A stretch of 35,105 nucleotides of DNA. Origin: a virus (taxonomy: Duplodnaviria > Heunggongvirae > Uroviricota > Caudoviricetes). Positions 32,111 to 32,991 of this stretch are shown piece after piece. Under the pieces are notes generated by a model that ran no database searches, was not told where the DNA came from, and saw nothing but the letters and a program-made list of their open reading frames with translations. The DNA lies in IMG/VR virus record IMGVR_UViG_2711768044_000007, positions 1-35,105 of that record. One strand, given 5' to 3'. Numbering within the stretch: the first letter of the stretch is position 1; every line of letters starts with the position of its first letter. The position numbers and the translations under genes were made by a program.

Positions 32111-32991
32111 TGTTTCATGTTGATAATAATTCCGGCGTGGCGAATATGCCTGCGCTGGCACCGGCGCAGAGTAATACCACCACCTGGTTTACCGAAGGTG
32201 ACGGACAAAAAGGTATCAGCTGGATTGGTCAGGACTGGCTGAATATTCTCCAGGCCGAACTGCTGAATATTCTGGCTGAAGCCAGTATTCAGCCGGATAA
32301 GGCGCAGTTAAACCAGCTTACGCTGTCCATTAAAGCCATTATCGCTGCGAATGCTTTTTCCCGGAAAAATAACCTGAAAGAAATTGCTGATGCCGGTGCG
32401 GAGGCCCAGCGTCTTGCCCGTGGTTATCTTGGTCTGGGGGCGCTTGCCACAAAAAACAGTCTTGGTCCCGGTGACGTTAATGCCCTGGCGAAGGATCAGA
32501 ATCTGGCCGACCTGGAGAATAAGGGAACCGCCCGTAATAATCTGGATGTTTACAGCAAAAGCGAAGGTGATAACCGTTACCTGCGCAGGGAGCAGCACGG
32601 CGCAGACATTCAGGATAAAGGGGCTTTTATCGATAACGTCGGTTTACGGGAAACGGTGAATAAGGCGGCGAATGCTCTGCCATCGGACGGCACCGCCGTT
32701 GCCGCGAACAGGCTGGCAAATGCCCATACAATTAATGGGGTTCCCTTTGACGGGACCCGGGATATCACTATCTCATCAGGAACAGTAACCTCTGTAAGGC
32801 TGGGGTCGGTGACAGCACATATGCCCGGAACATGGGAAAGCTGGGATCTTAATCTGGGGGGCGGTAATGTTCTTACCGGAATTAAAGTACAGGATGTCGG
32901 TAAGAATACGGCAGATAACGTCGGCGGTGTGTATTACCGGCCGTTGCAGTATCTGTTAAATGGGGCATGGGTGACGGCAGCGAGTATATAA
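32110..32991 (+). CDS. tail fibre protein (short; N-terminal constant part plus distal variable part)
   Basis: 293 aa, GAGGAG RBS, follows baseplate genes; contains a Gin/Hin-type crossover-like sequence at codon ~172. Confidence 0.65.
   Translation: MFHVDNNSGVANMPALAPAQSNTTTWFTEGDGQKGISWIGQDWLNILQAELLNILAEASIQPDKAQLNQLTLSIKAIIAANAFSRKNNLKEIADAGAEAQRLARGYLGLGALATKNSLGPGDVNALAKDQNLADLENKGTARNNLDVYSKSEGDNRYLRREQHGADIQDKGAFIDNVGLRETVNKAANALPSDGTAVAANRLANAHTINGVPFDGTRDITISSGTVTSVRLGSVTAHMPGTWESWDLNLGGGNVLTGIKVQDVGKNTADNVGGVYYRPLQYLLNGAWVTAASI
32627..32652 (+). other. candidate site-specific inversion crossover site (gix/hix-like) inside the fibre gene
   Basis: TTATCGATAACGTCGGTTTACGGGAA matches the Mu gix sequence as I recall it (TTATCCAAAACCTCGGTTTACAGGAA) at 22 of 26 positions, including central TC and the right half GGTTTAC. 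No partner site or invertase gene found in the window. Confidence 0.3.

Follow-up and report, generated by a model that had tools for sequence, protein, structure and literature searches.

The question raised by this locus is whether a gix-like 26-mer inside a prophage tail-fiber gene marks a host-range inversion switch that still works or only the remains of one. The window (the whole 35,105-nucleotide stretch that was analyzed) comes from inside a Mu-like prophage of the E. coli Sp18 type. It begins in a ner-like gene, encodes a Mu-type transposase at 281-2371 (Pfam Mu-transpos_C), and has a Mu-like baseplate block followed by the fiber gene. A sequence-only reading had proposed that the fiber gene contains a crossover site and that the switch might be a relic. 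We found that the 26-mer is very probably the proximal site of a host-range switch like that of the Mu G segment and that the copy of this switch in the window prophage has been inactivated. The features of the region are listed in Table 1.

TABLE 1 Features of the fiber region, in window coordinates
Feature	Position	Strand	Basis or remark
Tail-fiber gene (Mu S homologue), 293 codons, fixed Sc-Sv fusion	32110-32991	+	ORF list, Mu S alignment, relatives
Sc, constant fiber part, common to both fiber forms in intact relatives	32110-32626	+	
Inner arm of former inverted repeat, first ~45 Sv codons	32622-32765	+	85% shared with inverted S'v of relatives
Din-family (gix-type) 26-bp crossover site, proximal copy, TTATCGATAACGTCGGTTTACGGGAA	32627-32652	+	Core TC at 32639-32640
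Sv, variable fiber 3' part, now permanently joined to Sc	32653-32991	+	
Perfect hairpin AGAAGGCC-TTCC-GGCCTTCT between convergent stop codons	33000-33019		Read from sequence
tfa, tail-fiber assembly chaperone gene (Mu U/U' homologue)	33023-33544	-	Antisense to fiber; only tfa in segment
S'v-tfa spacer of L007-type relatives	33545-33669	-	L007 match
Deletion joint	33670-33695		26 nt without matched origin; left homology to 33669, right from 33696
Invertase 3' stub, last ~22 codons plus stop	33696-33762	+	93.7% nucleotide identity to L002 from 6042
Terminator-like hairpin plus T-run, 3' of invertase gene in relatives	33743-33773	+	Conserved with L002
5' part of DUF6645/SASA-type esterase gene	33849-35105	+	Pfam SASA E 2e-13; runs off window end

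The fiber gene carries a gix-type crossover site

The sequence-only reading had compared the 26-mer with the Mu gix site, whose sequence we took from the Mu record AF083977. In this record, the 26-mer TTATCCAAAACCTCGGTTTACAGGAA is centered on both annotated G-segment boundaries, with one copy per strand. The reading was correct that the window site matches gix at 22 of 26 positions, which holds for both real Mu sites, and that the TC core is present. Its description of the right half-site as intact did not fully stand, since that half-site matches at 11 of 12 positions (the left one matches at 9 of 12). By our own arithmetic, about 2e-5 matches this good to a fixed 26-mer are expected by chance in 35 kb when both strands are counted.

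We also aligned the site with the curated Din-family crossover sites (PMC3241671, Table 3). The window site matched gixL, gixR, bixL, and bixR at 22 of 26 positions, and the core dinucleotide TC/GA is common to all of them. The Shigella boydii B segment (bixL/bixR, PinB), compared here by its sites, has the same 12-2-12 architecture with a GA core, and the outer end of bixL, TCGATAA, is the same as that of the window site. The Hin/hix, Cin/cix, Pin/pix, and Min/mix systems share the 12-2-12 architecture but differ in having an AA core, and their sites match the window site at 14 to 19 of 26 positions. We found that a half-site weight matrix built from the same curated sites gave the window site the top score in the window, 26.4 bits, within the range of the curated sites themselves (17.8 to 32.4 bits); the best of 30 shuffles reached 18.5 bits. 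The window site has the form of the known sites, a 2-bp core flanked by two 12-bp half-sites of imperfect symmetry.

The position of the site within the gene is also that of Mu. It was said to lie at fiber codon ~172, at the constant/variable junction, and we placed it at codons 173 to 181 of the 293-codon gene, with the crossover dinucleotide in codon 177. It falls on homologous residues of the two fibers (FIDNVGLRETVN in the window fiber and FIQNLGLQETVN in Mu S), and the peptide that it encodes, FIDNVGLRE, has FIQNLGLQE as its counterpart in Mu S. Residues 1 to 198 of the window fiber are 46% identical to residues 1 to 191 of Mu S (E 6e-47); the distal tips of the two fibers resemble each other weakly, with 30% identity (E 7e-4). 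As in a Mu S/S'-type host-range switch, the crossover lies inside the fiber gene; the alternative fiber end has been deleted. We concluded that the tail-fiber gene of the prophage contains, in the 26-mer, a genuine crossover site for DNA inversion of the Mu type.

The gene organization downstream had been described as convergent, and this layout is real: the fiber gene (+) is followed by tfa (-), whose product matches Pfam Caudo_TAP (E 4e-18) and shows 32% identity to Mu U' (E 2e-23) and 30% to Mu U (E 5e-19). The gene is labeled tfa in the annotation of relatives. The perfect hairpin between the two convergent stop codons is likely a bidirectional terminator. A gap of 305 bp separates tfa from the start of the DUF6645 gene, which comes after the invertase gene in intact relatives and serves as a context marker outside the switch.

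Intact relatives invert exactly at this site

A megablast search of complete E. coli genomes with window positions 31500 to 35105 recovered the region from 24 genomes at ≥80% coverage, most of which have ~840 extra bases, annotated "recombinase family protein." In JE86-ST05 (L002), AST198 (L003), and FORC_029 (L006), the gene order is fiber (+), tfa (-), a fiber fragment "missing N-terminus" (-), and recombinase (+), and beyond the recombinase lie DUF6645, DUF1378, DUF826, a hypothetical protein, com, and mom. The fiber gene of the relatives has the same length and architecture as that of the window. We found that all three loci have a 26-mer identical to the window's and an inverted partner, TTCCTGAAAACCTCGGTTTACGGGAA (minus-strand reading), at the 5' end of a promoterless alternative fiber end, S'v. 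The inner half-sites of the 26-mer and the partner are exact reverse complements. Together with L005 and L007, these loci have the partner 1.3 to 1.4 kb downstream.

The sequences around the two sites are also those of an invertible segment. The first ~145 bp of Sv and S'v are shared at 85% identity in the relatives, which gives an extended inverted repeat, and blastn of the window against L002 matched 32622-32765 to L002 5474-5332 on the minus strand (84.8%). Sc stays put in both orientations (L005 and L006) and is 94 to 100% conserved over ~230 E. coli genomes with differing downstream sequence. The recombinase of the relatives is 74% identical to Gin over 184 residues, has an N-terminal YIRVSTNDQ serine motif, and matches Pfam Resolvase (E 2e-51) and HTH_7 (E 5e-15).

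Flipping L002 in silico at the central dinucleotide produced an uninterrupted 296-codon alternative fiber with tfa directly after it in the same direction. We compared an 800-bp synthetic junction, representing L002 flipped exactly at the core dinucleotide, with real genomes. The flipped junction was found at 99.4 to 100% identity over its full length, in 7 genomes at ≥80% coverage; the unflipped junction was found in 24 genomes. Two genomes, DLI.5a and TOE17, have one form at one chromosomal position and the other form at another. FORC_029 and NCCP 13983, both Korean stool isolates, have chromosomes of 5,189,944 and 5,189,943 bp, respectively, and carry the prophage in opposite orientations. 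Between these two genomes there are 0 mismatches in 4382 bp of left flank and in 3066 bp of right flank, and there are 0 mismatches in the 1317-bp inner segment after reverse-complementing. We concluded that the relatives invert exactly at the predicted crossover dinucleotide.

Among IMG/VR contigs, 27 contain the exact 26-mer. Of the 27, 11 have an invertase downstream, in either orientation (the flipped ones being L012, L026, and L034), and another three are shorter and end before the invertase position (L014 among these is also flipped). The window-type deletion joint is present in 5. Six contigs (L013, L027, L032, L035, L036, and L038) end 2 to 135 bp past the site, which suggests, without being proof, that assemblies break at a segment present both ways.

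These observations bear on an explanation in which the likeness to gix is a by-product of the conserved fiber peptide FIxNxGLxE, the 26-mer never having been a site of recombination. The site is wholly coding, and Mu S and the window fiber share the conserved peptide; coding constraint alone probably explains why the site survives in a relic. However, recombination in the relatives occurs exactly at the 26-mer, the flipped and unflipped forms are otherwise identical, and the partner site keeps the half-site consensus in a non-homologous outer context. The by-product explanation is refuted for the family, and we give it practically no credence.

Proposed working of the intact switch

In the intact form, the gene immediately to the right would supply a Gin-family serine invertase that synapses the site with the inverted partner ~1.3 kb downstream, both sites would be cut at the central TC/GA dinucleotide, and the segment would flip. 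The flip would swap the last ~116 to 120 fiber codons (Sv for S'v and back) and reverse the single tfa. Of this scheme, the sites, invertase, and exact flips have been observed in relatives; the catalytic steps and the need for Fis and an enhancer are modeled on Gin and Hin. By this analogy, invertase dimers would bind at both sites, the synapse would be assembled by an enhancer that carries Fis, and serine-mediated double-strand cleavage at the 2-bp core would be followed by 180-degree subunit rotation and religation. The recombinational enhancers of both Mu and Hin are Fis dependent, act in cis, and are located within the 5' part of the respective invertase gene.

A deletion has removed most of the switch from the window

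We found that the alignment of the window with L002 is continuous to 33551 and resumes at 33696, leaving ~990 bp of L002 (5052-6041) without a counterpart in the window. Window 33030-33669 is 88% identical to L007 3001-3641, with the L007 S'v stop codon as the limit of the match; 33552-33669 is the tfa-S'v spacer of an allele other than that of L002. The sequence lost at the joint comprises S'v and the distal crossover site together with codons 1 to ~164 of the invertase gene, the catalytic serine included, and it was very probably removed by a deletion or replacement of ~1 kb. The recombinase coding sequence of L002 occupies 5536-6108; its final 67 bp and the region beyond are matched at 93.7% by the window from 33696 on, and tblastn with the L002 recombinase matched its residues 162 to 190, a 29-residue stub, to window 33673-33759 (E 2e-4). 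The stub frame ends in ...IGLSILCRYVSASPAPSRKVP in the window and in ...IGLSTLYRYFPASPAPSPKVP in L002. The number of invertase codons retained is ~22 to 28, depending on whether it is counted from the nucleotide match (33696) or from the tblastn match (33673).

Because an L007-type tfa spacer and an L002-type invertase stub stand in one allele, the event is best described as a predicted deletion plus mosaicism. Among complete E. coli genomes, we found no intact context for the 26 nt at the joint. Their likeness to the last codons of an S'v allele is too weak to claim that origin for them. One scan each with the deletion joint and with the 26-mer gave no match in a species-representative genome collection. 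We considered 33740-33795 (CACGAAAAGTACCGTGACGCTTTTTTGAATTTCCGCAAAACA) as a possible Mu right end, with which there would have been no space for an invertase, and rejected it, as relatives have DUF6645, DUF1378, DUF826, com, and mom further right; the hairpin near these positions is the terminator of the invertase gene.

The sequence-only reading had located neither an invertase gene nor a convincing inverted partner site in the window, and both absences were confirmed. With Gin and the L002 recombinase as queries, tblastn across the 35-kb window returned the C-terminal stub and no other invertase (Mu Gin gave nothing significant). The site TTATCGATAACGTCGGTTTACGGGAA occurs once exactly in the window, on the + strand, and a second copy with ≤3 mismatches is absent from the 35 kb (0 of 100 shuffles matched). 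Nor did the mismatch search, the matrix scan, or an inverted-repeat search of the window yield an inverted partner with an identical core. We also searched M3, the closest relative with the same architecture. Its right arm consists of DUF6645, DUF1378, DUF826, a hypothetical protein, com, and mom, followed by host DNA. It contains no invertase up to the prophage end and no site above 11.8 bits.

Two candidates for a partner were rejected. The first, 34014-34039 (TTATGGATAATGCCGGTATCCGGTAA), matches at 20 of 26 positions, but it is in direct orientation, has a CC core, scores 9.9 bits, and lies inside the DUF6645 coding sequence; it is conserved in L002, L004, and L009. The second, 8470-8495 (TTTTCAAAAAAC GC GGTTTTAAAGTG), has the next-best matrix score, 21.2 bits, over the shuffle maximum, but it has a GC core, and 24 kb separate it from the fiber site. 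It lies inside ORF 8322-8831 (+) and is probably a chance A/T-rich match.

The window copy is very probably a relic with a locked fiber

A Din switch has a small serine recombinase gene adjacent to it and a second, inverted site on the same molecule. The window copy lacks both of these defining features, and we therefore filed it as a relic rather than as a functioning switch. Three options had been left by the sequence-only reading, namely, a switch that extends beyond the window, a degenerate one, and a relic. We chose the relic: a 3' stub is what remains of an invertase gene that has lost ~85% of its length, and S'v and the partner site have been removed with it. The loss of S'v, the partner site, and the invertase would leave the fiber locked as Sc-Sv. 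The orphan site is predicted to be incapable of recombining within the window prophage, and heterogeneity of orientation would be structurally impossible within the window sequence as given. For the source strain, a single orientation is deduced from one sequence of that strain. With the 5' 85% of the invertase gene missing, the enhancer would be gone as well if it was placed as in Mu and Hin.

Din invertases are known to cross-complement, and the 26-bp site is undamaged. The switch might still be active if a Din-family invertase elsewhere in the host (in another Mu-like prophage or in an e14-, Rac-, or Qin-type element) acted in trans on it and on a partner lying beyond the window. The rest of the host genome could encode such invertases and contain more sites, and some E. 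coli strains have an intact and an invertase-less prophage of this family side by side in one genome, as does JE86-ST05 (the intact one at position ~814 kb, the other at ~690 kb). However, the window has no inverted partner (the two rejected candidates have the wrong core, and one is in direct orientation), an M3-type right arm supplies neither an invertase nor a site, and the cis enhancer would be missing. In addition, S'v, the alternative end that gives inversion its purpose, has been deleted. We consider action in trans very unlikely.

A different history would make the invertase-less layout ancestral, so that the window never had a switch and the relatives later gained an S'v-site-invertase cassette by insertion. 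Both forms are common, the window-type joint being present in at least 8 complete E. coli genomes besides the IMG/VR contigs. This history does not account for the last invertase codons, stop codon, and terminator, which are kept in frame at 93.7% identity and read as a deletion scar, or for the S'v-tfa spacer, which is kept as far as the point where the S'v stop codon would lie. Moreover, tfa is oriented for cotranscription with a fiber end that is now absent. Mu, D108, and SfMu have a crossover site at the homologous position, so the switch would be older than the Sp18-type family. We regard an ancestral invertase-less layout as extremely improbable.

The 26-mer has 0 mismatches between intact and decayed alleles, which fits coding constraint on FIDNVGLRE, and the orphan site was probably kept as coding sequence for this conserved motif. 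The locus gives a decay pattern for a phase-variable host-range switch in which the crossover site outlives the enzyme, probably as coding sequence. An isolated gix-like site in a fiber gene is therefore no sign of an active switch. For annotation, the fiber gene should be entered as an Sc-Sv fusion that is fixed and confers one receptor specificity, the short ORF fragment at 33696-33762 as an invertase pseudogene stub, and tfa as a stranded remnant of the second expression state.

The locked allele is found at several chromosomal positions

We found the window-type joint in E. coli M1, M3, M18, CI5, and S1-CAM-01-A and in the second prophage of JE86-ST05; the query with the joint matched 8 complete E. 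coli genomes at ≥80% coverage. JE86-ST02 has the same invertase-less layout. The right end of the prophage adjoins a truncated lateral-flagellar flgL gene in M3, a truncated molybdopterin-binding xdhA-like gene in CI5, and citF in JE86-ST02. A scar shared at three insertion points more likely means that the invertase-less phage kept transposing and infecting after the deletion; spread of the scar between prophages by homologous recombination is the less likely alternative. The presence of the locked allele at three chromosomal insertion points suggests that loss of the switch was apparently no bar to phage spread.

In E. coli 600029 (L008, 2748-3500) and HCP4S3_I4 (L009, 2788-3500), an IS1 element abuts the window-type joint just upstream of DUF6645. 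Everything left of IS1 is gone in both, including the fiber gene and tfa, and the remnant in L008 adjoins lambdoid lysis genes. These two loci are a later stage in the decay of the same locked allele. IS1 as the cause of the deletion in the window was rejected: there is no IS1 at the window joint, and the element explains the further decay in L008 and L009.

A single tfa lies in the segment

An unusual trait of this family is that its segment contains one tfa, co-oriented with S'v alone (L002 4524-5045 and L005 4813-5334, as well as the window gene). The Sv orientation, in which the window is locked, is the more frequent in assemblies (24 genomes, against 7 for the other); it places tfa antisense to the fiber gene, and the two genes are separated by 31 bp that include the perfect hairpin. 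The Mu S tip, to which the Sv tip is homologous, requires its Tfa chaperone. The invertible segment might toggle chaperone supply besides the receptor-binding tip; the Sv fiber would then fold without a dedicated chaperone, or tfa would be expressed independently of orientation and its expression would survive the deletion. We hold this idea tentatively and think it doubtful. A sigma-70 scan of the minus strand for a tfa promoter gave one 9/12 match, at 33709-33681, no better than in shuffles. It is also possible that orphan sites serve as substrates for the invertases of coresident intact prophages, with rearrangements between prophages as the outcome.

Comparison with Mu and Sp18

The prophage resembles Mu in its Mu-type transposase and baseplate gene order, and the relatives also share com and mom. 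The likeness to the Mu G segment (gixL/gixR, Gin) extends to the N-terminal part of the fiber, to the site at homologous codons with its TC/GA core, to the tfa product, and to an invertase that lies directly right of the segment in the relatives. The window copy differs from Mu in lacking the distal site, S'v, and the invertase. The intact relatives differ as well. Their segment is ~1.3 kb, whereas that of Mu is 3 kb; it contains one tfa, whereas Mu has two such genes (U and U'); their variable fiber parts are ~120 codons, versus >300 in Mu; and their inverted repeats extend ~145 bp inward at 85% identity, versus 34 bp in Mu. A large SASA/DUF6645 gene also stands between the invertase and com/mom. 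In relatives, this gene has ~680 codons and a SASA-type sialate O-acetylesterase domain; it is a cargo gene of the Sp18-type Mu-like family, and Mu is without it.

Sp18 of E. coli O157:H7 Sakai has been described as having an invertible host-specificity region with genes that differ from those of Mu (Asadulghani et al. 2009, PMC2669165). Because the invertible region of the Sp18 family had already been noted, the novelty of the locus is low, and the relic in the window leaves the current understanding of Din-family inversion systems unchanged. The O157:H7 relative L010 (ECP19-198) belongs to the same family: it shares Sc at ~94% and the site with 1 mismatch, and it has a single tfa, an inverted fiber 3' end, an invertase, and DUF6645. 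Sp18-type copies differ from the window in keeping the invertase and both fiber ends; the window is a deletion derivative with another Sv allele. In L010, the Sp18-type fiber gene is an uninterrupted ORF of ~296 codons at 3371-4261, in the flipped orientation. It is underannotated, as RefSeq gives only its last 67 codons as "tail fiber protein."
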